In this document: piece by piece, positions 4,386 through 64,000 of the stretch
Numbering within the stretch: the first letter of the stretch is position 1
How the letters are laid out: every line of letters starts with the position of its first letter
Virus record (IMG/VR): IMGVR_UViG_3300036766_000548
Span: 14,012-78,011 of that record
DNA from: a virus
Length of the DNA stretch: 64,000 nt
Direction: 5' to 3' (one strand)
Notes under the pieces: model-generated
Seen by the model: only the letters and a program-made list of their open reading frames with translations
Databases searched by the model: none
Told to the model about the DNA's origin: nothing
Position numbers and translations under genes: made by a program

Positions 4386-4931
4386 ATGCCACTTTATCAG
4401 AACAGTACGGTTACAGATTCCAAGATTGAAGTTGGAAATTACGCGATGTATGTGGGCAGTGCAGGCACTTCCGCTACTGCAATCACCATCAATTTGGGCC
4501 TTGGGATGTTGAAGGGGTTCACTTATGTCCCTGAAAATTTCACTTCCCAGGCTGGAAACGGTGTTGATCCAATCACTGGTATTGCTAGGGAAACCGCAAC
4601 GTTTGAATTTGATTTGATTGAATATGGCCCATCAGCATTCTCTCAGATTCTAGGTGGAGCAATGTCTACTCCAACTGCAGGAACCGTAACTGTAGGTGGT
4701 CAGGTAACTGTAGTAACTGGAGTTGGTATTAAATTAGTTAATAGTAGAAAACTCAAATCTGGTTCCACCCAGACCACGACCTATGTATTGAATGATTGTT
4801 ACATGAATGGTGGGTATTCATTCACCCCCAAATCTGATAATGATGCCGATCCTGTTGGAGTATATAGCTTTAGCATGACTGCAAAACAATATGCCACTGC
4901 TGGAACTATTTATACGAAGACGGTAGCGTAA
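4386..4931 (+). CDS. Major tail tube protein
   Basis: AAGGAG RBS; position before chaperones and tape measure; beta-rich 181 aa. Confidence 0.7.
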   Translation: MPLYQNSTVTDSKIEVGNYAMYVGSAGTSATAITINLGLGMLKGFTYVPENFTSQAGNGVDPITGIARETATFEFDLIEYGPSAFSQILGGAMSTPTAGTVTVGGQVTVVTGVGIKLVNSRKLKSGSTQTTTYVLNDCYMNGGYSFTPKSDNDADPVGVYSFSMTAKQYATAGTIYTKTVA

Positions 4932-5311
4932 TGAAAGTAGAAGATCTTGATGTTCTGCGTCCTGAACCTAGATATGTAAAAATAGGTGGGAAAGAAGTTG
5001 ATGTTAGTTTCATCCCTTGCGGTATTACTTTTGAAATAGATAGAATTGTTAATGAATTAAGGGGATTCACTCAAGAGGATATGCTTAGTAACAATGAAAT
5101 AACCAATAGGGCTTTTGATTTATCAATTGATATGTGCGTAGCTTTTTGCGAGCGGAAATATCCCGAATTAAACAAGGAATATTTCATGGATAATTGCAGT
5201 CCCGAACAGATTAGGGCTTTTTCCGCCGCAATCAGTGAAGCACTATATAAGGCATATGCAGGGATAATCGAAATAAAAAACTTGAAAGCGCCCAAGAAGA
5301 AAAACCCATAA
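4931..5311 (+). CDS. Tail assembly chaperone (G-like)
   Basis: Between tail tube and tape measure genes; slippery site near 3' end. Confidence 0.8.
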   Translation: MKVEDLDVLRPEPRYVKIGGKEVDVSFIPCGITFEIDRIVNELRGFTQEDMLSNNEITNRAFDLSIDMCVAFCERKYPELNKEYFMDNCSPEQIRAFSAAISEALYKAYAGIIEIKNLKAPKKKNP

Positions 5312-35609: not shown

Positions 35610-36594
35610 GGTATCTTCTTAAACAGTTTCCAGAATAATCTATAAATGATATTCTTTTCGTTTATAGCAATATCCATGGCATTGTTTATCGACATTCCAC
35701 CAGCTCTATATAAGATTTCATAATCCTTGCTTTCAAAACCCATTATATCATAAATCAATTTTCTAAAAGCACCCTTGCCCGCATTTTCACATATCTTAGT
35801 AAATACCCATGCAACTTGCTCAACGGTTGGTTTGTCCATTATATGTCCTTGGTAAAAATATGAAAACCTAAAATATACAAAAATCCTACTTTCATCGATT
35901 CATTGGCAAAATATTTTACATCCTTCCTGAAATCAATTATGAAATATGAGAATATCGGGAAACTGAAAATGATTATAGAAAATATATCTTTTCGCCTGCC
36001 GCCCTTGATAGTACCAAATGGATATTTCATAATGAAAATACCATAATAAATAATCTAACAAAATGATATAACATACCTAAGCTAATAAGTAAAAATAAAA
36101 TAAAGTTGATTTTATGAAATAATGGATAATCTGAAAAATAAAAATTATATCCTGCTATCGTTCCATTATAAATAACTCCCATAATTGCAAACAATAAACC
36201 GTTAATAAGTAATATTTTCAACTCTAAATTATTCATATAATCACCACCTCCCCATTATAAGCTTCTGCCGCTTTCCGTGCAGTACTTTCAGAACAATATT
36301 TATGGGCATGTTCAATATCGATTCCATACTTGATGCCCGACCATTGCTTTTTATAGCTTGTCACTTTATAGATATAGAAAATCATTCGCCAATTGAAAGA
36401 TGACTTGGAAAGCTTGACTATATATTTCATGAATAAAAAATAGCTTCTATTTCAGTTGAACGTATTTGACAATTATTAAAAATCAATACAGATTTATTTC
36501 CTAAAAATGCTTCGCAAATATCATCCCATTCATCTTCCTGATATTCAGCAATTATGGTATTCCCACTTTTCAAATATACTTCGCAATTTTTCAT
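35606..36594 (-). other. Run of five small hypothetical ORFs (35606-35839, 35839-36030, 36027-36236, 36233-36430, 36427-36594)
   Basis: Overlapping start/stop codons downstream of the type 2 cassette. Confidence 0.5.
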
Positions 36595-36617
36595 TTTATC
36601 CTCCTATCTATATTATA
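36590..36617 (-). promoter_or_regulatory. Repeated promoter+RBS+start cassette, type 2
   Basis: 28/28 identical to 22642-22669. Confidence 0.75.
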
Positions 36618-36622
36618 TCGCC

Positions 36623-38077
36623 TTATTGCAAATTTTTTAGCAATATTTCGTCAAAACTATAATTAAAAATTCCTTTAGATTCTTTGCCATCGAGTATCAT
36701 TGACATTGACCTAAAGCTTTCCTCTATTCTGTCTGCAACTATATTCTCAATAGTTCCATTGGCAAATGGGAAATATACATTAGCCCTTTCCGCTTTTTGT
36801 CCATATCGATCTATCCTGCTTAATACTTGTATAACCTGTCCTGGTGTATCTGGCATTTCTACTATTCCTATCCCTTCGCTTGCCGTTAATGTTAAACCCT
36901 CCCCACCCGCTTCTGTTTGGATAAAAATCAATTTAACCTTTTTATCTTTTTGAAAACTATCTTCGGCCTTCTGCCTATTTATTCCAGAAATACTTCCATC
37001 TATTTTAACTGCTACATTTTTATATTTAGTGTATAAATCATCCATGACGTTTTTATGCCAAACAGAAATAACCAGTTTATCGTGATCTTCTAAATATTCG
37101 TCTATCCATACAAATAATGCTTTTTGCTTTGCTAAATATGCTAATCGTTTTAATTCACTTAACGTATTCTTTCTATCTTTCTTGTTCAGTATCTTATTAA
37201 AATCATTGCTTAGATTATTGTAATTCTTAGCTTCTAATTTTGTCAATTCCAATGGGATAACAGTAAATATTGGTTCTTTTCTTGTTTTCTTTCTTCGTAT
37301 CATTATCTTTTTTAATTTTTCATTTAATTCTTTTTCGTTACTCGATCCGTTAAATTCCCATCCGCCTTTATATCCGATGGTAGGCTCGCAATAATGCCAA
37401 TAATAAGAATATTCTTTAGGGAATAATTTAGGCGCTGTTAAATGCAATATGGTCCAAAAATTACGTGGACGCTTCCTGATTGGTGTTCCTGATAATGGAA
37501 TGAACACCTTGGGCTTTAATTTATTTACTAATTCGACAAAACACATTGTCCAAATAGCTTTTGGATTCCCAAGTCTATGCGCTTCATCCGGTATTACACC
37601 GATTATATTTAATTTAGTTAATTCTTTCCACCACCCTTCTAACCTGACTATGCCCTTTTTATATCTATGCTTTTTATATTTTGTTCCATTCAATTCACAT
37701 TCTTGCTTTATCAATAATTCTTCTTTATCAAATTTCAATTTTCGTTTATCTTCTAATTTTCTGTCTTTAGCGTTTTCCTTTCCTAATATATGATAATTGA
37801 TAATATAGTAACAATAATTTTTAGATAAACTGAATTGCTTTTCGCCATTGATTATATATGAATCTTTTCCCGTCCACTTTTCTATTTCTCGTGCCCATTT
37901 GAGTTTCATTGATTTGGTGCAGACAATTAAATATTTCCCTGGATAGCTGATATCGCTTATACCGATAGCTTCTATTGTTTTGCCAAGGCCACACTCATCC
38001 CCAATAATAGCATAGCCATTATGTTCCTCGACAAATTTAATACATTCTTTTTGATACGGAAGATACTTAAGCTTCAA
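36623..38077 (-). CDS. SNF2-family helicase
   Basis: DECGLGKT, DEAH, LSGTP, GGEGLTL, QVLSRIDRYGQ. Confidence 0.9.
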   Translation of the reverse strand: MKLKYLPYQKECIKFVEEHNGYAIIGDECGLGKTIEAIGISDISYPGKYLIVCTKSMKLKWAREIEKWTGKDSYIINGEKQFSLSKNYCYYIINYHILGKENAKDRKLEDKRKLKFDKEELLIKQECELNGTKYKKHRYKKGIVRLEGWWKELTKLNIIGVIPDEAHRLGNPKAIWTMCFVELVNKLKPKVFIPLSGTPIRKRPRNFWTILHLTAPKLFPKEYSYYWHYCEPTIGYKGGWEFNGSSNEKELNEKLKKIMIRRKKTRKEPIFTVIPLELTKLEAKNYNNLSNDFNKILNKKDRKNTLSELKRLAYLAKQKALFVWIDEYLEDHDKLVISVWHKNVMDDLYTKYKNVAVKIDGSISGINRQKAEDSFQKDKKVKLIFIQTEAGGEGLTLTASEGIGIVEMPDTPGQVIQVLSRIDRYGQKAERANVYFPFANGTIENIVADRIEESFRSMSMILDGKESKGIFNYSFDEILLKNLQ

Positions 38078-38133
38078 TTATTTTCCTTTAATAATAGGCT
38101 GTTTTTTATTTTTCCAACCCATTATATTATCCT

Positions 38134-38256
38134 TTAATTCTCACAGATAATAGCGAGTTGACCACAAGCAGCACCGGCGTTAATTTCGGCTTGTGTCGCG
38201 ATTGCAATGGCATAATCATAACCAGACTTCTGTAATTCTTCCTTAATGCGTTCCAT
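38134..38256 (-). CDS. 40-aa peptide equivalent to the RlmN/Cfr C-terminal catalytic segment
   Basis: MERIKEELQKSGYDYAIAIATQAEINAGAACGQLAIICEN; GAAGGAG SD 7 nt before ATG; AACGQL motif; absent from the ORF track. Confidence 0.8.
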   Translation of the reverse strand: MERIKEELQKSGYDYAIAIATQAEINAGAACGQLAIICEN

Positions 38257-39067
38257 ATATTTCTCCTTCTACTAAAATAGGATCGTCGATAAATCCGTTC
38301 CTCAAAGAATGAATATCAAGTACTAAATTACCCGCAATGCATTTCATTTGATTATTTACTTCACGTTGATATATTTTTGGATATGGATATTTGTTGTATA
38401 TAAAATTAGCACATGAACAACCGTCCCTTTCCATTGATATTGTTTTTCTATAACCAATTAAATCATTTATTGCGACATAATGATTGACACTATAATCGTT
38501 TACTTTCATAAGACCCACAAATCCAAAATCCAATACTCCTTTATTTGAATAATATTCTATATATTCATTTATTTTTTCGTTTGAATCAACAAGTCCTTTT
38601 TGTAGAACGCATGATAAATGCAATTTATCATTCCCATAAATATCAATCATTGAATCAATCTCGAAATCGTTTATTGAATGCCTACTTAATGAAATACTAT
38701 TCACTAATTCATTATTCAACTCGATGCCCTTTCTAGTGTTTATAATTATAAACATTTCAGGGAAAAATGACCGTATCAATTTACATGCCTGTTCTACCTC
38801 ATTAGTAAAATATCCTGGCTCACCTCCAGTAAAAGAAACCCTGTTTATATTGATATTTTTGTCTTTTATGCTAGTCAAAATATAAGACAAAAGGTCCAAA
38901 GAAAATACATCCTTTTTATCTGAACTATATACACAAAATGGACACCCCATATCACAATAATCAGATACGCGAATAAATAAATTAACATAAGGATCGCAAT
39001 ATTTTTGAGATAAACAATCAAAATTTTTTGTCTTTACAACATCTATCCAACTAGACATTTTTAGCAA
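38243..39067 (-). CDS. Radical SAM protein
   Basis: CDMGCPFC and SFTGGEP; extra N- and C-terminal Cys. Confidence 0.85.
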   Translation of the reverse strand: MLKMSSWIDVVKTKNFDCLSQKYCDPYVNLFIRVSDYCDMGCPFCVYSSDKKDVFSLDLLSYILTSIKDKNININRVSFTGGEPGYFTNEVEQACKLIRSFFPEMFIIINTRKGIELNNELVNSISLSRHSINDFEIDSMIDIYGNDKLHLSCVLQKGLVDSNEKINEYIEYYSNKGVLDFGFVGLMKVNDYSVNHYVAINDLIGYRKTISMERDGCSCANFIYNKYPYPKIYQREVNNQMKCIAGNLVLDIHSLRNGFIDDPILVEGEIYGTH

Positions 39068-39351
39068 TGCCCACTACCACAACCACAACCACCGCTACTA
39101 CCGCCTCTATTTATATCACTAGAATTAATAATCTTTTTTTTACTCATGTTTTTAATAGGCTTGTCCTCACAATATTTATTATCGATAAAATGAATTAGTA
39201 AATCAAAACACTCATTAGATATGGCGCCGTCAATATGGAGCTGATTTATTCTTTTATACACATTTATTATACCATTTGTTTTTATGCTCTCTTTTATACT
39301 CGGTAGCCAGAATTCCATTTCTTCGTTCAATTCTCTTTCATTTGATTGCAT
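39061..39351 (-). CDS. 96-aa protein with Gly/Cys C-terminal tail (candidate radical SAM substrate)
   Basis: AAGGAG RBS before MQSNE; ends RGGSSGGCGCGSGHC. Confidence 0.65.
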   Translation of the reverse strand: MQSNERELNEEMEFWLPSIKESIKTNGIINVYKRINQLHIDGAISNECFDLLIHFIDNKYCEDKPIKNMSKKKIINSSDINRGGSSGGCGCGSGHC

Positions 39352-39364
39352 TTTTAGTACTCCT

Positions 39365-40150
39365 TTATATGATATTAATGCCTTGAATGGCACCATTTCC
39401 CATATTGTTTTTCTCAGAAATCGTATTTTTATTTATTGGTGATAACTTGATAAAAAATCTATTCTTGTCAAAAAGTCTCTTTAATTCTTCTATATCAAAA
39501 TCGCCTTCTTCAACCAATGTCATGTTAATAGTTGTTTTAAGATTGCTTTTGGTCCGTATATTGCTTAATTGTTCTAGTGTCATTTTATTTTTATATGGAA
39601 TAAGCCAATTTCGTTTTTCATTTTTAAGAGAATGCACGGATATTTGAAGGGTTATGTTGTCCTTTATCCAAGAAAAATCAGAACCAATAATGCCTATCGT
39701 AGAAATATAATGATGAGTTTTAGGATATTTTTCATCTATTTTAAATATAGCATCCTTTACATTATCTATATTTAGGAACGGTTCACCCATTCTAGTATAA
39801 TTTATCTTGTGTTCAAATGCTTCTTGAAAACGTTCAGTTCTTTTAGATAAAACAAATTCAACTTGTTCCACAATTTCTTGCGATGTAAGGTTCCTGTATT
39901 TTTTCATTGCACCCGTAGCACAAAATTTGCATCTAACTGGACATCCCGACATCGTAGAAACGCCAATCATCCAACGTTCTTTTCTACTCCCTATTTTTGT
40001 ATCATGAAGTATATTTTGTTTTTGTCCAATAGCATCTTTAGTATATGAAGGCAAAAATGTATCGGTTACCTCAATAAGAAAATTATCTTCTGTTTTTAAG
40101 GCATATACAATTCCATTTGCGAATTCTTTATGCTTAATTTCTGTCAACAT
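39365..40150 (-). CDS. RlmN/Cfr-like radical SAM core lacking its C-terminus
   Basis: VSTMSGCPVRCKFCATG..RNLT..EIVEQV, MGEPFLN, ISTIG, LQISVHS; no AACGQL; Gly at the C118-equivalent position. Confidence 0.85.
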   Translation of the reverse strand: MLTEIKHKEFANGIVYALKTEDNFLIEVTDTFLPSYTKDAIGQKQNILHDTKIGSRKERWMIGVSTMSGCPVRCKFCATGAMKKYRNLTSQEIVEQVEFVLSKRTERFQEAFEHKINYTRMGEPFLNIDNVKDAIFKIDEKYPKTHHYISTIGIIGSDFSWIKDNITLQISVHSLKNEKRNWLIPYKNKMTLEQLSNIRTKSNLKTTINMTLVEEGDFDIEELKRLFDKNRFFIKLSPINKNTISEKNNMGNGAIQGINII

Positions 40151-40240
40151 TTACCATCTCCTTATTCCATTTTCTACTATTCAATGTCGTAACCAAATCA
40201 TCCACATCTCCAGTATAATATCTCCAATAATCCCGCTTGT

Positions 40241-41215
40241 CTATTTTGTTATATTCCCTTGACCAATATCCTTTGCCTTATTATTATGATCTATACAAAC
40301 ATCCAAACAATTTTTTCTGCAAATAAGATCGTTATAAGTATTTGTTTTTTCAAACCATATTTTTCTTTCTTGTCTAATTTCTTTAATAGATTTCCCATAA
40401 ACATTCCCAATAGCTTCGCCTTGCTCGCGCATATAAATTACACAAGGAAAATGTTTTCCATGTAAAATAACCATATCATCTTTTACTAAATGGCATTTAT
40501 TGCAATCGGTTTCTTTCATGCCTCTAACATGCCTTCCATTATTTATATTATTGATCCTATATTTCAATATCTTATATTTTGTTTTTACGTTTATATTCAA
40601 ATAATGATTTGATTGTGCTGTAGGAATAATTCTAATATCTGATACTTTTAATTTAGTTGCAAATTCAATAATATTTTTCAATTCATCATTATTTTGTTTG
40701 TCCAATACCACCCCTACAGTTACATAAGTCAATTTAGATAATTCTTTTATAATCATCGCTATATGCTCAAAATGAGAATTGGTCCCTGCCATAATATCGG
40801 CAGTAGAAGAGCAACAGGCATCTAGCGAAATTGAAAAATCATTTATTCCGGCTTTGTGTAATTGCTTATAATATTCTAATTCTGCCGATCCATTTGTAGA
40901 AATAGCAATATGTTTAATACATTTTTTGCTTTTAGTGTATTGAACCAATTCTAATAAATCTTTCCATATAGTAGGCTCACCACCTGAAAATCTTATATTA
41001 TGTAAATTAGCAGAAGTCCAGATATCTACAATTTCTTTTGCTTGCTCTAAAGTTAAATCCCCTTGAAGGTCTTTTACTATCCCTCGGCAATAAGGACATT
41101 TGAAATTACAACGATTAGTCAATATCAATTCACACCGTTGTAAATCACTTTCCCAAGAAACGTTTTTTGCCCTTTTATCGGAAAGAGTATAAAATCCAAT
41201 ATCTTCAAGTTTCAA
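40241..41215 (-). CDS. MoaA-like radical SAM protein
   Basis: CNFKCPYC, IRFSGGEPT, ISTNG, SISLD; C-terminal Cys cluster. Confidence 0.85.
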   Translation of the reverse strand: MKLEDIGFYTLSDKRAKNVSWESDLQRCELILTNRCNFKCPYCRGIVKDLQGDLTLEQAKEIVDIWTSANLHNIRFSGGEPTIWKDLLELVQYTKSKKCIKHIAISTNGSAELEYYKQLHKAGINDFSISLDACCSSTADIMAGTNSHFEHIAMIIKELSKLTYVTVGVVLDKQNNDELKNIIEFATKLKVSDIRIIPTAQSNHYLNINVKTKYKILKYRINNINNGRHVRGMKETDCNKCHLVKDDMVILHGKHFPCVIYMREQGEAIGNVYGKSIKEIRQERKIWFEKTNTYNDLICRKNCLDVCIDHNNKAKDIGQGNITK

Positions 41216-42086
41216 TATTTAACTCCTTTCTAACTATATTTTCCTCATCCTTTGTATAATCACCAGGATCATGTTCAAACTCAGGATTGAATATTTCCAC
41301 TTCCACGCCTAATGCCGATAACTGCTCACCATATTTTCTCGCCCTATCCTGCGCCATTTTCTCATTGTCGAATAAAAATATAACTTTCTTGAATCGTTTG
41401 GAAAGTAGGTTTATTTGTTCCGGTGTAATTTCAATACCGAAAGAACAAGAAACATTATTGTGGCCTAATCTCCAACAATCGAATGGCCCTTCTACCAATA
41501 TTATATAGTTATTCATACAATTATCTAGGTTATATAGTATTTTTTTATTGGAAATAATTGCTTTATCTGTTTTTAAATTTCTATATCTAATTTCATTGTT
41601 TACAATTGTTCTCCCTAAGAATGTCACTAATTTATTTTGATAAAAAACTGGAATAATAATTCTAAAATTCCATTCTCCTATAATCCCTCCACCTTGTATT
41701 TTATATGTATCTACTAAATAATAAGGATCAAAATTCCTTTTAATCAAATATTTCCTTTCTTTTTCATTTAATATACTTCCAGGCAATTCAATATTATGTA
41801 TTTTACCTTGTGTTTTATTCAATTTATTCAATACTATTTTATCAATAGTATTTTCATTTAATAATATATTAAGATCATTAAACGACAAATTCAATAATTT
41901 TTGTAAAATATCCTTTGCATTTATTCCACCACATCGCCAACAATTATAATAAAATTCATTTAGATTAAATCCACCATGATATTTAGTATCATTACAATTT
42001 GGACAGCAAACATTTATCCATCCATTATCACCTACTTGATATTTTATTCCATATTGTTTGAACATACTAGGAAGATCAATTTTCAT
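41205..42086 (-). CDS. DNA primase (zinc finger + Toprim)
   Basis: CPNC...CWRC, LVEGPFD, FLFDNE, DPGD. Confidence 0.85.
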   Translation of the reverse strand: MKIDLPSMFKQYGIKYQVGDNGWINVCCPNCNDTKYHGGFNLNEFYYNCWRCGGINAKDILQKLLNLSFNDLNILLNENTIDKIVLNKLNKTQGKIHNIELPGSILNEKERKYLIKRNFDPYYLVDTYKIQGGGIIGEWNFRIIIPVFYQNKLVTFLGRTIVNNEIRYRNLKTDKAIISNKKILYNLDNCMNNYIILVEGPFDCWRLGHNNVSCSFGIEITPEQINLLSKRFKKVIFLFDNEKMAQDRARKYGEQLSALGVEVEIFNPEFEHDPGDYTKDEENIVRKELNIET

Positions 42087-42849
42087 TGTTCTTCCTTTTT
42101 GCTGCTTCTTTTCGTTCTCTAGTTTTACGTTTTGTTTCTTTTAATTTGTTTATAGATTCTTGTGTCCATACTCTACCTACGCCTCTTAATCCAATTATTC
42201 TTTTTTGTTCATCTGTTAAATGTTTATGTAATCTTAATTGCGCTTGTCTATTTTTTTCTATTTGTTCTGGAGTCTTTTTTCTGCCCTTTTGTGCATCGCT
42301 AATTTTCTTTTTAGTTTCCTCTGATACTGGATGACCTTTTATCCTTTGTGATAATTTCTTTTTGGCCTCTTCTGTATGATGTCTACCTAGATGAGCTAAT
42401 CTGTTTTTTTCTTTTGCTTCTTTAGATGGTTTCCATCCTAAATTTCTTAATCTAGATTTTTCACAAAACTCTTTTGATCTTTTTTGTCCTTTATTAGCTA
42501 TGCTTAATTTCTTTCTTGTAACTTCGTTGGGTATTCCTCCTGATCCACCGCCGTCCATAAGGTTATATCCATATTTGCTGTTTGTGCTTTTATATTCTTT
42601 AATCCAATATTTTTCTTTTCTATCTAATGTTCTTTTTGAGTAAGCAAAATCTATTGTAGCCCATTTGAAATTGTTTTTGCCATATTTTTTTAACGCCCTT
42701 TGAAAATAATAACCATCCCCTCTTTGAGCACTAGATAAATGCAATGATTTTCTTCTTCTTAATGTTCCAGTAGTTTGCCCAATATAAACTTTATCATTCA
42801 TGATGTTTCTAGCTCTGTAAATAATGCCATAAAGTTTCTTTTCTTTCAT
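42076..42849 (-). CDS. GIY-YIG homing endonuclease with NUMOD3 repeats
   Basis: GIIY...KVYIGQT, GYNL..GG, repeated SEETKKKIS-like units. Confidence 0.9.
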   Translation of the reverse strand: MKEKKLYGIIYRARNIMNDKVYIGQTTGTLRRRKSLHLSSAQRGDGYYFQRALKKYGKNNFKWATIDFAYSKRTLDRKEKYWIKEYKSTNSKYGYNLMDGGGSGGIPNEVTRKKLSIANKGQKRSKEFCEKSRLRNLGWKPSKEAKEKNRLAHLGRHHTEEAKKKLSQRIKGHPVSEETKKKISDAQKGRKKTPEQIEKNRQAQLRLHKHLTDEQKRIIGLRGVGRVWTQESINKLKETKRKTRERKEAAKRKNNEN

Positions 42850-59009: not shown

Positions 59010-59342
59010 ATGTTGATACGGCACATGGGCATATTTGTAAAGGATATTGAAAAAGTAAGTTATATAATGAGACAATTAGGATTTGAGGAAATATATAACA
59101 AGATTGAAGAAATTGGCCATGTAGTAAAATTTCAAGTAGGAAACGCAAAAATAGAATTGATACAAGATAAGGAAGCAATTGAAAATAGTTTTCATATTTG
59201 TGTAGATGGCGGGATTCCAGATTTTATGCTTGTTTATGCTAAAATAAAATACGAACCATTTGATGGTAATTTATTGGTTGATTTTGTATATATAAATGAT
59301 TCAATTTATTTTGAATTTGTGAGGGATAAGAATGACATATAA
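59010..59342 (+). CDS. VOC/glyoxalase-fold protein
   Basis: HMGIFVKDIEK, KIELIQ, HIC, FEFV. Confidence 0.7.
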   Translation: MLIRHMGIFVKDIEKVSYIMRQLGFEEIYNKIEEIGHVVKFQVGNAKIELIQDKEAIENSFHICVDGGIPDFMLVYAKIKYEPFDGNLLVDFVYINDSIYFEFVRDKNDI

Positions 59343-59949
59343 GGAATATTCATATAAAGAAAGAGATATGTGGTTTATTAGAATATTGATGGAATATATT
59401 TTGCATATATGTGGTATAAAAATATACCATAATGGGTTATCAATAGGTTCAGAAGATAATGCACACGAAGATGCTATAGCTTATTTCGGGTTCAACACTC
59501 CATACACATTAAACGACATTAAAAAATATAACGCCGAGAAAGACGAGATTCCATGTTCTGATAGTGTGTTTGATTATGTATTCATTAAAAGTGTAATTGA
59601 GCATATATCCAATACAGATTTGTTCTTGTCTGAGATACATAGAGTGTTGAAGCCAGGCGGGAAATTGATCGTATTGACTCCTGATTATCAAAAACAGAAA
59701 AGTTTCTTTTATGATGATTATACCCATATAAAGCCATTTACATTGAGCAGCCTGAAAATGGCCATGCAATTAAATGGTTTTGTCTTGGAAATCGCTAAAC
59801 ATTTTTATTACTATAGAAAGATATGGGAAGGAAAGATGATTCCAAATAGCTTGAATTGTAGGGTTGGTTTTTGGCTTACAAAGAAAACTGGTATTAAATA
59901 TTTTAGATGGGGAAGTGATAGACAGCTATTTGTAGTGGGGATAAAATGA
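59332..59949 (+). CDS. Class I SAM-dependent methyltransferase
   Basis: FDYVFIKSVIEHI...EIHRVLKPGG. Confidence 0.8.
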   Translation: MTYKEYSYKERDMWFIRILMEYILHICGIKIYHNGLSIGSEDNAHEDAIAYFGFNTPYTLNDIKKYNAEKDEIPCSDSVFDYVFIKSVIEHISNTDLFLSEIHRVLKPGGKLIVLTPDYQKQKSFFYDDYTHIKPFTLSSLKMAMQLNGFVLEIAKHFYYYRKIWEGKMIPNSLNCRVGFWLTKKTGIKYFRWGSDRQLFVVGIK

Positions 59950-60788
59950 ATAAAATAGTTGTAATTTCTAATTCGCGTTTTGAAAAAGGGTTGGTGGCAT
60001 TCATCAATTCATATAGAAGAGTGAATATGCAGACTCCATTGGTGATAATTGATACTGGATTGGAAAATACTTATCCATATGAGACAATAAAAAAAACATT
60101 CAATGGTGATGGTTTGAAAAAAGCTGAATGGATGACTGATTATTCCCCTTATCTACAATTGGAATTGGGAATGATAGAAGCCGATAAGATAATTTATATG
60201 GAAGTTGATATGCTTTTATTGAAAAACATAGATCATTTGTTTGATGGGGTTACAGATGAAAATGCCATAGCGGTAATGGATGATGCGGCATATGCAACAA
60301 TGGAAGGGGATAATTATATAGATAATTGTGGAAGGTATTTTGCCATGGATTCGGAATTAAGAAATAAATATTCAAGAAGTAAGGGATATAATGGCGGCTT
60401 AATCGGAGGGACTAAAGAATTTTATGCCAATCTGCAAAATAAATATGTGTACTATTTACGCAATTATGAACATCAATATAGATTGCTTGCCCAGAGTCTA
60501 TTAAATCAATATTTCATTGAAGAAAGGATATTTGTAAAAGATATTGGCCTGGAATATAATTTTTCAGGAATAAACGAATATTATAGTAAGCCAGAACTAT
60601 ATGCAATTTGTTATAATTGTATAAATAATAAATTAAATTCTATAGGTTTGTTTTTCAATAAAAAACAAATATCAATTGTTCATTTCACTGGTAAACATAA
60701 GCCATTTATTGTTGAAAGAGAAAGCGATACGTTGAATGCCATGCAGGATGTTTGGGAATTTTATTATAATAACGGAGAATTATTTTAA
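59946..60788 (+). CDS. Glycosyltransferase, family 8-like
   Basis: KIIYMEVDML, YNGG, QSLLN, YNF, IVHFTGKHKP. Confidence 0.8.
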   Translation: MNKIVVISNSRFEKGLVAFINSYRRVNMQTPLVIIDTGLENTYPYETIKKTFNGDGLKKAEWMTDYSPYLQLELGMIEADKIIYMEVDMLLLKNIDHLFDGVTDENAIAVMDDAAYATMEGDNYIDNCGRYFAMDSELRNKYSRSKGYNGGLIGGTKEFYANLQNKYVYYLRNYEHQYRLLAQSLLNQYFIEERIFVKDIGLEYNFSGINEYYSKPELYAICYNCINNKLNSIGLFFNKKQISIVHFTGKHKPFIVERESDTLNAMQDVWEFYYNNGELF

Positions 60789-61546
60789 TGTTCAATGAAA
60801 TAAATGTAGAGTTAACTAGCAGGTGTAATAAGCATTGTAAAATTTGCCCTCGTTGGCAAAATAATATAGAAAAAGGCGATATATCCTTGTTTCTTTTGTC
60901 CATCATTGAAAAGCAATTAGAGGATAATATCATCATTCATTTTCATAATAATGGCGAGCCATTGGTTTACCCATATCTCAAGGAAGCTTTCGATATTTTC
61001 CCTAGGCAAATAAAGCATTTTGACACCAATGGGATATTACTTTTGGAAAGGGCTGAAGAGATTCAAAAAGCAAATATCATTTCTGTTTCAATTATTCAGG
61101 ACGATCCGTTGGGATATGAACAATTAGATATATTGCAAAAATATCTATCTATAAAACCTAGCAATCAAAAAGTAATAGCTCGATGTGTAGGCGACATTAA
61201 CGGAAAAAGACAATTGATTATAAAAGGTATGAATATTCCCATAGTTAAAAGAGTAATACATAATAAGGCAGGAAGAGTAAACTATACGAAAGAGACGATA
61301 AAGCCAGAAGATTTTATTTGTAGGGATTTCTTGAATCATCCAGCCATAGATTATTTAGGTAATTTTTATATGTGCGTAAAATATGATCCTAAAGGAGAGG
61401 GCATATTGGGCAATGTGAATACAGATACAATCAAGGATTTGTGGTATGGGAAGAAGCGCATGGAATATCTTGAAAAGCATGTCCAGGACAGGAATGATGT
61501 AGAGTTTTGTAAGAATTGTGAATATTATGGCTATCCAAATCATTAA
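60788..61546 (+). CDS. Radical SAM protein with SPASM/twitch domain
   Basis: CNKHCKIC, GEPL; C-terminal C...G..YMC...LGNV...CKNC. Confidence 0.85.
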   Translation: MFNEINVELTSRCNKHCKICPRWQNNIEKGDISLFLLSIIEKQLEDNIIIHFHNNGEPLVYPYLKEAFDIFPRQIKHFDTNGILLLERAEEIQKANIISVSIIQDDPLGYEQLDILQKYLSIKPSNQKVIARCVGDINGKRQLIIKGMNIPIVKRVIHNKAGRVNYTKETIKPEDFICRDFLNHPAIDYLGNFYMCVKYDPKGEGILGNVNTDTIKDLWYGKKRMEYLEKHVQDRNDVEFCKNCEYYGYPNH

Positions 61547-61556
61547 AGGAGAAAAC

Positions 61557-62381
61557 ATGAATAATTGTATCTATGTCGCTGAGGCAGGAATCAATCATTC
61601 GGGTTCTTTGGATACTGCTTTGCAGCTTATTGATTTGGCAAAAAAGCATGGATTTGATTATGTCAAGTTCCAAAAAAGGAATGTTGACCTTTGCTATACT
61701 CAAGAATATTTAGATGGGTTACGCGATTCTCCTTGGGGTAAGACGCAACGTGATCAAAAATTAGGGTTGGAATTATCTATCGATGATTATAGAAGGATAG
61801 ATAACTATTGTGATGATATTGGCATTAAATGGTTTTATTCCGCATGGGATATTTATAGTGCAAAAGAAATGCGAGAATTTGATGTCGATTTCATAAAGAT
61901 AGCGAAGGCCAGCATAAACAATAAGGAGTTAATTGAATATTATAATAGTTTCAATTCCAATCTTGTAGTATCGATGAACTATAATGATCCATCAAACGAA
62001 AATCATATTCTTTATGATTTCAATAAGAATGTGATTAGATACATTTTAAGCTGTGTATCTCTTTATCCTTCCCCTACCAATTTTAATGGACTTGAACATA
62101 TCCAAACGATTAAAAGTCGTTATCACAAGCCAGCAGGGTATTCCAATCACTCTAGCAATTGGATTCATCCTGTAATTGCTTCATATCTAGGCGCTGAGAT
62201 GATAGAATGCCATATCACTTTGGACAAGAATATGTACGGTTCGGATCAAAAGGCATCGCTTGATGATGACGATTTGACCAATATGATGAAGTATAGATAT
62301 GATTTTCCAAGTGAAGAAGATATAGACAAATATATGCTACAGGAAAATGAGGTATTGAAGAAACTCAGGCAGACTTGGTAA
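61557..62381 (+). CDS. NeuB-family nonulosonic acid synthase
   Basis: VAEAGINHSGS, VKFQKR, GYSNHS, IECHITLD, GSDQKASL; AAGGAG RBS before 61557. Confidence 0.9.
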   Translation: MNNCIYVAEAGINHSGSLDTALQLIDLAKKHGFDYVKFQKRNVDLCYTQEYLDGLRDSPWGKTQRDQKLGLELSIDDYRRIDNYCDDIGIKWFYSAWDIYSAKEMREFDVDFIKIAKASINNKELIEYYNSFNSNLVVSMNYNDPSNENHILYDFNKNVIRYILSCVSLYPSPTNFNGLEHIQTIKSRYHKPAGYSNHSSNWIHPVIASYLGAEMIECHITLDKNMYGSDQKASLDDDDLTNMMKYRYDFPSEEDIDKYMLQENEVLKKLRQTW

Positions 62382-62382
62382 A

Positions 62383-63606
62383 ATGAAAGTATTGTTAATT
62401 TATTCAAATGCCATGGAGCAGGCATGGGTTCCAATCGGTCTTCTTTATCTCGCAGCCAATTTACGAAAAAACAATATTGATGTAAAAATAATTGATTCAA
62501 AATATGACAATGTATTTGATGAAATAATACATTACAACCCTGATTATATTGGCCTAGGTGGAATGACGTTAATGGCTAATAATGCTATTAAATTAGGCAA
62601 AGAGATAAAGCAAAACTTTCCTAATATAATTTTAGTATATGGTGGTGTCCATTTTACGTTTTTACCGGAAGAGGCTTATGAAGTAGCCGATATAATAATC
62701 AAGGGAGAAGCCGAAAAAGTATTTGTAGATATAGTAAAAAATAAACCATATTGTGATATTAGGGGTATTTTATACAAATGTGATAAAGAATGGATAGATA
62801 ATGGTGATTATGAGTTTATCAATGATTTAGATTCATTGCCATTGCCTGCTTATGATTTAATTGATATGAATAGATATTCAGATGAATTGGTAACCGGCGA
62901 AAAAGCGATAAGTATATTGACTGGTAGAGGATGTCCACACAATTGTAGTTTTTGTGCCTCACCTAAATTATGGCGAAGGAAAGTAAGATATCATTCTGTA
63001 GAATACACAATCAATCACATAAAGTATTTAATTGATAATTATAATTTACACAATTTAAGGATTATGGATGATACGTTTACTTGCGACAATGCAAGAGTAT
63101 TGGATTTTTGCAAAGCCATAAAAGACAACGATATAAAACTTAACATGACTTGCTTGACAAATGTAAACAATGCAAGCCTCGATGTATTCAAGAAAATGAA
63201 AGATGCAGGATTCAGCATTGTGGCTTTCGGCCTTGAAAGTGTCGATGAAAATGTTTTAAGGTTGGCAAACAAAAACAATACTAGGGAAAAAATGACAAGA
63301 GCGGTCAATTTGGCTCATGAGGCAGGATTGAAAACAGAACTGTTGTTCATGGTCGGAAACATGGGGGATACTAAAAAATCATTAAATGACAGTTTACAAT
63401 TTTCTAAAGAGTTAAGCGGTTATAAAACATATTTTCAACTAGCCACACCATTTCCAGGTTCTAGGTTTTATGATGAGGCAGAAAAATATGGCAAGATTAT
63501 TGACAGGAATTGGAAAGATTACAACCATAAAAAGGTCACATATATTCCAGGTGGGCTAGACGAGGAAACAATGTATGATACAGTAAAAAAAGGATGTATA
63601 AATTGA
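62383..63606 (+). CDS. Cobalamin-dependent radical SAM protein
   Basis: PIGLLYLAA, GGVHFT, GEAE, TGRGCPHNCSFC, FGLES, TPFPGS. Confidence 0.9.
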   Translation: MKVLLIYSNAMEQAWVPIGLLYLAANLRKNNIDVKIIDSKYDNVFDEIIHYNPDYIGLGGMTLMANNAIKLGKEIKQNFPNIILVYGGVHFTFLPEEAYEVADIIIKGEAEKVFVDIVKNKPYCDIRGILYKCDKEWIDNGDYEFINDLDSLPLPAYDLIDMNRYSDELVTGEKAISILTGRGCPHNCSFCASPKLWRRKVRYHSVEYTINHIKYLIDNYNLHNLRIMDDTFTCDNARVLDFCKAIKDNDIKLNMTCLTNVNNASLDVFKKMKDAGFSIVAFGLESVDENVLRLANKNNTREKMTRAVNLAHEAGLKTELLFMVGNMGDTKKSLNDSLQFSKELSGYKTYFQLATPFPGSRFYDEAEKYGKIIDRNWKDYNHKKVTYIPGGLDEETMYDTVKKGCIN

Positions 63607-64000
63607 AATCATCCACACTGAAAATATTTAACGATTTTTATATTCGCTATCCACAATTATGCGGATGTACTTTCCAGAAAAGCCTTACAGATACGATGAA
63701 GATATTGTTTGAATGTTTCAGCAACGGGACAAGAAAAATGTTGGTTTGTGGCAATGGAGGCAGTGCCGGTGACGCTCAACATATAGTCGGCGAATTGATG
63801 AAGCCATTTTTGCATAAAAGAAATCTGTCAGAAACATTGAAGCAGAACATATCAAAACACATAAAAAATAAAAGCGATTCTGATTTCTTGATAAACAATA
63901 TAAAGCAGTCTTTTCCTGTAATGTCATTAGTCGGTGAAAACGCCTTGATAACGGCAATATCAAATGATTCTTCCCACGATCTTATTTTTGCCCAACAGAT
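63603..64000 (+). CDS. gmhA: SIS-domain phosphoheptose isomerase (GmhA-like), runs off the window
   Basis: Frame from TTG 63603: ...MLVCGNGGSAGDAQHIVGELM...ITAISND...IFAQQ; absent from the ORF track. Confidence 0.85.
   Translation, partial: MKSSTLKIFNDFYIRYPQLCGCTFQKSLTDTMKILFECFSNGTRKMLVCGNGGSAGDAQHIVGELMKPFLHKRNLSETLKQNISKHIKNKSDSDFLINNIKQSFPVMSLVGENALITAISNDSSHDLIFAQQ

Follow-up and report, generated by a model that had tools for sequence, protein, structure and literature searches.

A conserved two-polypeptide radical SAM module of the RlmN/Cfr type in phages

We describe a phage module in which an enzyme core resembling the radical S-adenosylmethionine (SAM) methylases RlmN and Cfr and the cysteine loop expected at its C-terminus are encoded by two separate genes. 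It was recognized in a 64,000-nucleotide stretch (hereafter the window) of the viral record IMGVR_UViG_3300036766_000548, which represents a complete 78-kb phage genome with terminal repeats, and consists there of a 261-residue core protein and a 40-residue peptide (Table 1). RlmN is the C2-methyltransferase of 23S rRNA A2503 and tRNA A37 (TIGR00048; PDB 3RFA, 4PL1, 5HR7, 6FZ6), and Cfr the C8-methyltransferase of 23S rRNA A2503 (TIGR04432; PDB 9P0P). The conserved occurrence of this two-polypeptide, class-A-type arrangement in phages is confirmed, and the two genes probably encode a single RlmN/Cfr-like enzyme to which the peptide would supply the methyl-carrying cysteine in trans. A description of such a module was not found in the open-access papers and bioRxiv preprints that were searched.

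Profile searches and structure prediction together confirm the membership of the core in the RlmN/Cfr family. The protein displays the cluster motif C70-x3-C74-x2-C77, followed by ATG, as well as the MGEP and SVHS motifs, and it matches the radical SAM domain PF04055 at E 7.6e-12. It scores at E 1.2e-21 against the RlmN profile TIGR00048 (77 bits, under the curated cut-off of 290 bits) and reaches 54 bits against the Cfr profile TIGR04432 (under the curated 550 bits), and a PDB search matched RlmN and Cfr chains. The AlphaFold (AF2) model of the core has a predicted local distance difference test score (pLDDT) of 85.6, and ranks 1-11 of the Foldseek search with this model are all RlmN/Cfr chains (E 2.5e-11 to 1e-6; top matches RlmN 6fz6, 4pl1, 3rf9 and 5hr6, and Cfr 9p0p). 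PHROGs places the core in a family of unknown function only. The N-terminal HhH2 domain is missing: the profile match begins at about position 100 of 355, and the alignment has about 90 N-terminal residues fewer. At its other end the chain stops at the RlmN 'IPWNP...' segment, where RlmN runs on into its last helix, its last strand and the Cys355 loop; the methyl-carrier cysteine loop (CGQL; C355 in RlmN, C338 in Cfr) is thus absent from the core and is carried by the 40-residue peptide. In HMMER alignments with 6fz6 and Klebsiella RlmN, Gly63, seven residues before the first cluster cysteine, occupies the site of the resolving Cys118 of RlmN. A sequence-only reading of this DNA had noted both the early end of the RlmN-like core and the Gly residue; profiles, PDB matches and alignments bear it out on each count.

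That reading had also singled out the AACGQL peptide as a separate product with its own translation start, as it indeed appears to be: an AAGGAG Shine-Dalgarno sequence sits 6 nucleotides before the ATG at 38256, and the open reading frame (ORF) overlaps the stop of the preceding radical SAM gene by 14 nucleotides. The peptide is colinear with the last ~35 residues of RlmN, comprising the helix, the strand and the ..AACGQL loop (carrier-loop segment ..ATQAEINAGAACGQL..), so that core and peptide add up to ~301 residues with no part missing between them. The resemblance is more than chance, since 115 clusters of free-standing homologues of 36-65 residues were retrieved from a database of 5.8 billion proteins (E 8e-18 to 5e-7). 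These share the invariant motif A-x-A-T-x-A-E...A-C-G-Q-L and are conserved along their entire length. The peptide is under purifying selection, with a median dN/dS (ratio of nonsynonymous to synonymous substitution rates) of about 0.12 and identical peptides retained at a dS of about 0.5. Cys31 is the sole invariant cysteine. The resolving role suggested for the second one in the sequence-only reading is not supported, as this residue is missing in Kehishuvirus, Moorella and Vibrio and from many of the metagenomic peptides. Among longer proteins the peptide search yielded a single case, the 238-residue P0268, in which the peptide is C-terminal and which may be a gene-calling run-on; a PHROGs search with the peptide gave no match.

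The split is a conserved design rather than damage. A core and a separate peptide were found in about 70 dereplicated phage lineages, and the two occur together in about 110 loci from IMG/VR and from metagenome-assembled genomes (MAGs). Scans of IMG/VR and GTDB genomes yielded about 140 loci, the genome matches being all MAG contigs and no isolates, and the split module was seen exclusively in phages and phage-like contigs. Cultured carriers span phages of Bacteroides, Moorella, Vibrio, Pectobacterium (Wc4 included) and Yersinia, with core-peptide pairs in Kehishuvirus tikkala, Moorella MTATph1, Pectobacterium Arno18, Vibrio D479 and Yersinia P778. The peptide gene adjoins the core on its downstream side in 39 dereplicated groups; it is 0.15-1 kb downstream in 5, over 1 kb (at most 5.6 kb) downstream in 17, and upstream in 2 (L052, L120). 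For instance, an AACGQL ORF follows the core directly in Kehishuvirus tikkala (43 residues) and Moorella MTATph1 (40 residues), and one gene separates the two in Pectobacterium Arno18 and Yersinia P778. Each of the split cores examined, more than 100 in number, has Gly at the Cys118 site. The window module conforms to this pattern, with a Gly-63-type core and a free A-T-x-A-E...A-C-G-Q-L peptide encoded on one strand within one operon. The two-component proposal of the sequence-only reading is thus upheld, core, separate peptide, independent start and Cys118-to-Gly change being kept across distant phages.

Two simpler origins of the split fare poorly against this distribution. In the window two genes separate the parts, as might be expected had an insertion disrupted an RlmN gene that is now decaying, with the small ORF as its remnant; the conservation of the split in about 70 lineages and the purifying selection on both parts refute this account, and we consider its probability negligible. 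It is also highly improbable that splicing, an intein, frameshifting or readthrough turns the parts into a single chain. In favour of this, core and peptide are in phase in the Moorella phage, with one stop and a short linker between them. However, their frames differ in Kehishuvirus, unrelated protein-coding genes fill the 0.65 to 5.6 kb between them in many loci, the peptide gene is upstream in L052 and L120, and every peptide gene comes with an ATG and a Shine-Dalgarno sequence of its own; in the window, an Rfam scan of 36000-42500 (E up to 1) detected neither an intron nor any other RNA family. Recoding is ruled out because frames, cargo and gene order vary. As a separate observation, an intein interrupts the split-type core within its cluster motif in P0119, L061 and L116 (C-x3-C-x2-C, intein, C-ATA..), the ORF before the peptide in L061 and L116 having 600 residues.

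A phmmer search of 1.84 billion representative sequences returned 3725 matches, 38 of them at E <1e-30, and a tree of 104 near-full-length proteins falls into two sides with 96% support. One side comprises the proteins with Cys118, namely canonical RlmN/Cfr and single-chain phage forms, and the other 53 representatives that all lack this residue. Judging from this tree, the split family would belong to a sister clade of RlmN/Cfr that does without the resolving cysteine. Within it, Gly occupies the site in 29 representatives devoid of a cis tail and in P0123, which has the peptide at its N-terminus, and Ile, Thr, Asp, Asn or Met in 14 representatives that have kept a cis CGQ tail. The absence of a cis tail and the presence of Gly at the Cys118 site therefore coincide exactly. 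Since single-chain members also lack Cys118, its loss is clade-wide and not a consequence of the split; nor is it tied to a free peptide, because N-terminal fusions exist (P0123, and P0142, a peptide-core-second radical SAM fusion).

A complex of core and peptide was predicted with SAM and the [4Fe-4S] cluster included. It obtained a score of 0.79, as compared to 0.02 for the best control; 58 of 80 solved complexes attained this level, as did 2 of 110 mismatched pairs. The runs share at least 83% of contacts, and the pLDDT of the partner is at least 69. In the prediction, the peptide docks at the position of the RlmN C-terminus, with its residues 13-16 paired with core strand 232-236 and its cysteine loop touching core residues 68-69, 77-83 and 119-121, around the cluster motif. 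We propose by analogy with RlmN that the core would hold the [4Fe-4S] cluster and SAM, and that the addition of peptide strand 13-16 onto the last core strand 232-236 would place the Cys31 loop above the SAM site. Cys31 could then be methylated by a first SAM, as is Cys355 in RlmN, and a 5'-deoxyadenosyl radical generated from a second SAM would convert methyl-Cys31 into a Cys-S-CH2 radical able to attack an sp2 carbon of the substrate. The resulting adduct would have to be resolved by a route other than that of RlmN, since the sister clade works without the resolving Cys118.

Several observations weigh against this proposal. Because RlmN structures are solved, the docking result reflects likeness to RlmN and is not independent proof of binding. 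RlmN deprived of Cys118 stays cross-linked to its substrate (PMC9692996), the only invariant cysteines across the cores are the three of the cluster, and no conserved substitute base for Cys118 was identified. In the P0181-type Gly clade the cysteine loop is absent both in cis and nearby: viral contigs provided no loci for relatives of P0181 and P0223, and the one scan of metagenomes made with P0181 turned up a single usable locus, which lacks a CGQ peptide in its vicinity. A complete 304-kb phage (L119) has a well-conserved peptide gene (4872-5117) and no core detected anywhere; this peptide gene has CoaBC-like genes on one side and, on the other, an RtcB RNA ligase that bears an intein. Lastly, no gene of nicotinamide adenine dinucleotide (NAD) salvage, Nampt included, is found in the genome of the window phage.

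The loss of Cys118 also raises the question of whether the peptide is consumed, remaining attached through a Cys31-S-CH2-adenine bridge to an RNA, DNA or NAD/ADP-ribose target. The sequence-only reading had started from the methyl-carrying and resolving roles of the two RlmN cysteines and the lasting cross-link formed by C118 mutants, in agreement with PMC9692996, and had proposed an exchangeable carrier or a tag left behind. Such tagging would suit the persistence of that cross-link, the Gly in every split core, its exact match with the missing cis tail (29 plus one N-terminal fusion versus 14 tailed representatives), the strong Shine-Dalgarno sequence of the peptide gene, and the two complete peptide units found in tandem in one 93-residue ORF of Vibrio phage D479 (L004 4303-4584). 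However, the single-chain relatives without Cys118 would then be suicide enzymes, one Gly-bearing protein has the peptide fused at its N-terminus (P0123), the peptide retains the helix and strand for a stable predicted docking, and the tandem duplication is confined to one phage among about 150 loci. As the loss of Cys118 covers the whole clade, single-chain members included, we regard covalent tagging as improbable; only the two-component part of the earlier proposal stands, the carrier-or-tag part being weakened by the tailed single-chain sisters. We hold in equally low regard the idea that the peptide is a consumable radical warhead yielding a methylene-bridged peptide-nucleotide or peptide-RNA conjugate for counter-defence or nucleotide metabolism, whose targets may be, for example, the NAD+/ADP-ribose-derived molecules handled by neighbouring NadV, NatV, NrtR and macro genes. 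If true, it would be the first case in nature of the cross-linked intermediate of RlmN serving as an end product.

Being short, strongly conserved and translated on its own next to radical SAM enzymes, the peptide is also reminiscent of a ribosomally synthesized and post-translationally modified peptide, in which case the peptide modified by the core would itself be the functional molecule. A second peptide-like, Cys-tailed protein is even nested with a radical SAM enzyme in the same operon. Nevertheless, the peptide shows residue-for-residue homology to a catalytic segment of RlmN, it is conserved over its whole length with no leader/core architecture, and cis-fused forms exist, which leaves this explanation only a slim chance. 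We retain as probable the reading of core and peptide as one enzyme with a carrier in trans.

The moiety modified is most likely an adenine ring. Homology favours an RNA target such as tRNA A37, and so does a single-chain form located within an array of phage tRNAs; we place RNA first among the candidates at somewhat less than an even chance. Nothing in the data spoke for the inactivation of host ribosomes or tRNA envisaged in the sequence-only reading. The gene neighbours indicate NAD/nucleotide metabolism at least as much as RNA. We clustered all ORFs of the loci and counted the families recurring across dereplicated groups: besides the core (63 groups) and the peptide (47), these are Nampt/NadV (20), the NMNAT-Nudix protein NatV (15), a compact radical SAM enzyme that partners Cys-tailed proteins (15), a 255-residue radical SAM enzyme (15), a 148-residue methyltransferase (13), NrtR (6) and NadE (3). 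NAD+ salvage genes (NadV, NatV, NrtR, NadE) are found no more than 5 kb away in 19 of the 62 groups, a linkage scattered across the core tree (14 changes needed), and NadV/Nampt is directly beside the single-chain form in Vibrio PS17B. Fusions to Nudix, dGTPase-type HD or isochorismatase domains occur, moreover, among relatives devoid of the N-terminal domain. Given this linkage and these fusions, an adenine nucleotide of NAD, ADP-ribose or (d)ATP metabolism is a serious, if less probable, alternative to RNA; a substrate outside all of these classes seems unlikely, and DNA more doubtful still. Nampt/NadV and Nmnat/NatV constitute NARP2, a phage NAD+ reconstitution pathway (Osterman et al., bioRxiv 10.1101/2024.02.11.579819) that about 1.1% of phage genomes are reported to carry (PMC13464706); no radical SAM partner is mentioned in the NARP papers that were consulted.

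Other features of these neighbourhoods were recorded. L105 (3967-7166) shows an array of NatV, peptide, NadV and macro-domain genes, with no core found in this 29%-complete record. A SPFH/band-7 gene is located two genes upstream of the Kehishuvirus core (L001 2446-3663), and the single-chain RlmN-like genes of Stenotrophomonas/Xanthomonas phages are annotated as 'prohibitin family protein' (L005 3477-4436), an apparent mis-annotation.

Other radical SAM cassettes repeatedly occupy the gap between core and peptide. In the window, the ~1.1 kb that separates the stop of the core from the start of the peptide contains two genes rather than non-coding DNA: a small Gly/Ser/Cys-tailed protein, whose likely start is the ATG at 39351 after AAAGGAG (the open frame extends to 39396), and a compact radical SAM enzyme. 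At least nine further lineages have a Cys-tailed protein with a compact radical SAM enzyme in this gap (Cys-tailed proteins at the equivalent slot in L043/L079, L074, L076, L083, L090, L091, L098, L104 and L122), the window enzyme of 274 residues and the 310-residue enzyme of L043 being 31% identical; in other lineages the slot contains a radical SAM and methyltransferase pair. The tails of the Cys-tailed proteins are, for example, of the form DPC-x9-11-C, and NadV is sometimes adjacent (L098, L113, L115). The 324-residue enzyme upstream of the core has a full-length homologue (33% identity) 1.2 kb from the peptide gene of L121, the only clear one, and no core was found in this 70%-complete record. 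Its assignment as a clear member of the 255-residue, methyltransferase-paired family was dropped, the connection being a weak single-linkage one.

In the window, all genes of the 36.6-42.1 kb array are co-oriented on the minus strand. A promoter and terminator scan gave no signal exceeding shuffled sequences, and the interior of the array is without a terminator. Replication and nucleotide genes surround the module here, as they do in the Kehishuvirus and Moorella phages. The phage genome has five radical SAM genes in all, and a sugar-modification cluster at 59332-64000 (+) encodes a methyltransferase, a GT8-like glycosyltransferase, a radical SAM/SPASM-like enzyme, a NeuB-like nonulosonic acid synthase, a B12-binding radical SAM enzyme and a GmhA/SIS-like protein. 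A single sequencing run lists DNA of this phage, a sediment metagenome that is probably its source, and no RNA run is listed.

Table 1. Coordinates of the minus-strand gene array and of the split module in the window
Feature	Positions	Strand	Remarks
Toprim primase	41205-42086	-	Most upstream of the seven listed array genes
MoaA/SPASM-like radical SAM enzyme, 324 aa	40241-41215	-	Adjoins the core on its upstream side
Shine-Dalgarno AAGGAG of the core gene	40158-40163	-	7 nt ahead of the core ATG
RlmN/Cfr-like radical SAM core, 261 aa	39365-40150	-	ORF, profile and PDB matches, AF2 model, Foldseek
Small Gly/Ser/Cys-tailed protein (cargo gene 1)	39061-39351	-	Tail ..GGCGCGSGHC
Compact radical SAM enzyme, 274 aa (cargo gene 2)	38243-39067	-	Motif CDMGCPFC
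Shine-Dalgarno AAGGAG of the peptide gene	38263-38268	-	Inside the 3' end of the preceding gene
40-aa Cys-loop peptide	38134-38256	-	ORF; equivalent of the RlmN C-terminus
SNF2 helicase	36623-38077	-	Last of the listed array genes

To our knowledge, no class A radical SAM methylases other than RlmN and Cfr have been studied, and the two-cysteine mechanism of these two is a textbook case. The phage module would represent a large natural family in which one of these cysteines is supplied in trans and the other is dispensed with, and thus a ready-made system for studying the resolution, or the use, of the cross-linked intermediate without Cys118. Its placement beside NAD+ salvage genes and radical SAM cassettes suggests an undescribed phage reaction on nucleotides, NAD or RNA, possibly tied to counter-defence, and the module is directly testable because cultured phages carry it. 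As regards NARP2, its genes are the conserved genes most often found near the split module in relatives, but its enzymes are different and the window phage has no NARP2 gene. With RlmN the module shares the core fold, the CxxxCxxC-ATG, MGEP and S-x-H-S motifs and the helix-strand-(A/G)CGQL loop, here on the peptide; whereas RlmN is one chain with Cys118 and HhH2, the phage module has two chains, a Gly and no HhH2. Cfr, the second-best structural and profile match of the phage core, has the fold and, by analogy, probably the class A mechanism in common with it and differs in the same respects, the phage gene being moreover without any link to antibiotic resistance. The single-chain RlmN-like proteins of 309-319 residues from Stenotrophomonas BUCTxx99, Salmonella Arash, Aeromonas Ahp1 and Vibrio PS17B resemble the split module in being phage-borne and devoid of the N-terminal domain, but Cys118 and a cis GGGCGQLW tail are both retained in them, and the tree places them on the side of RlmN/Cfr.

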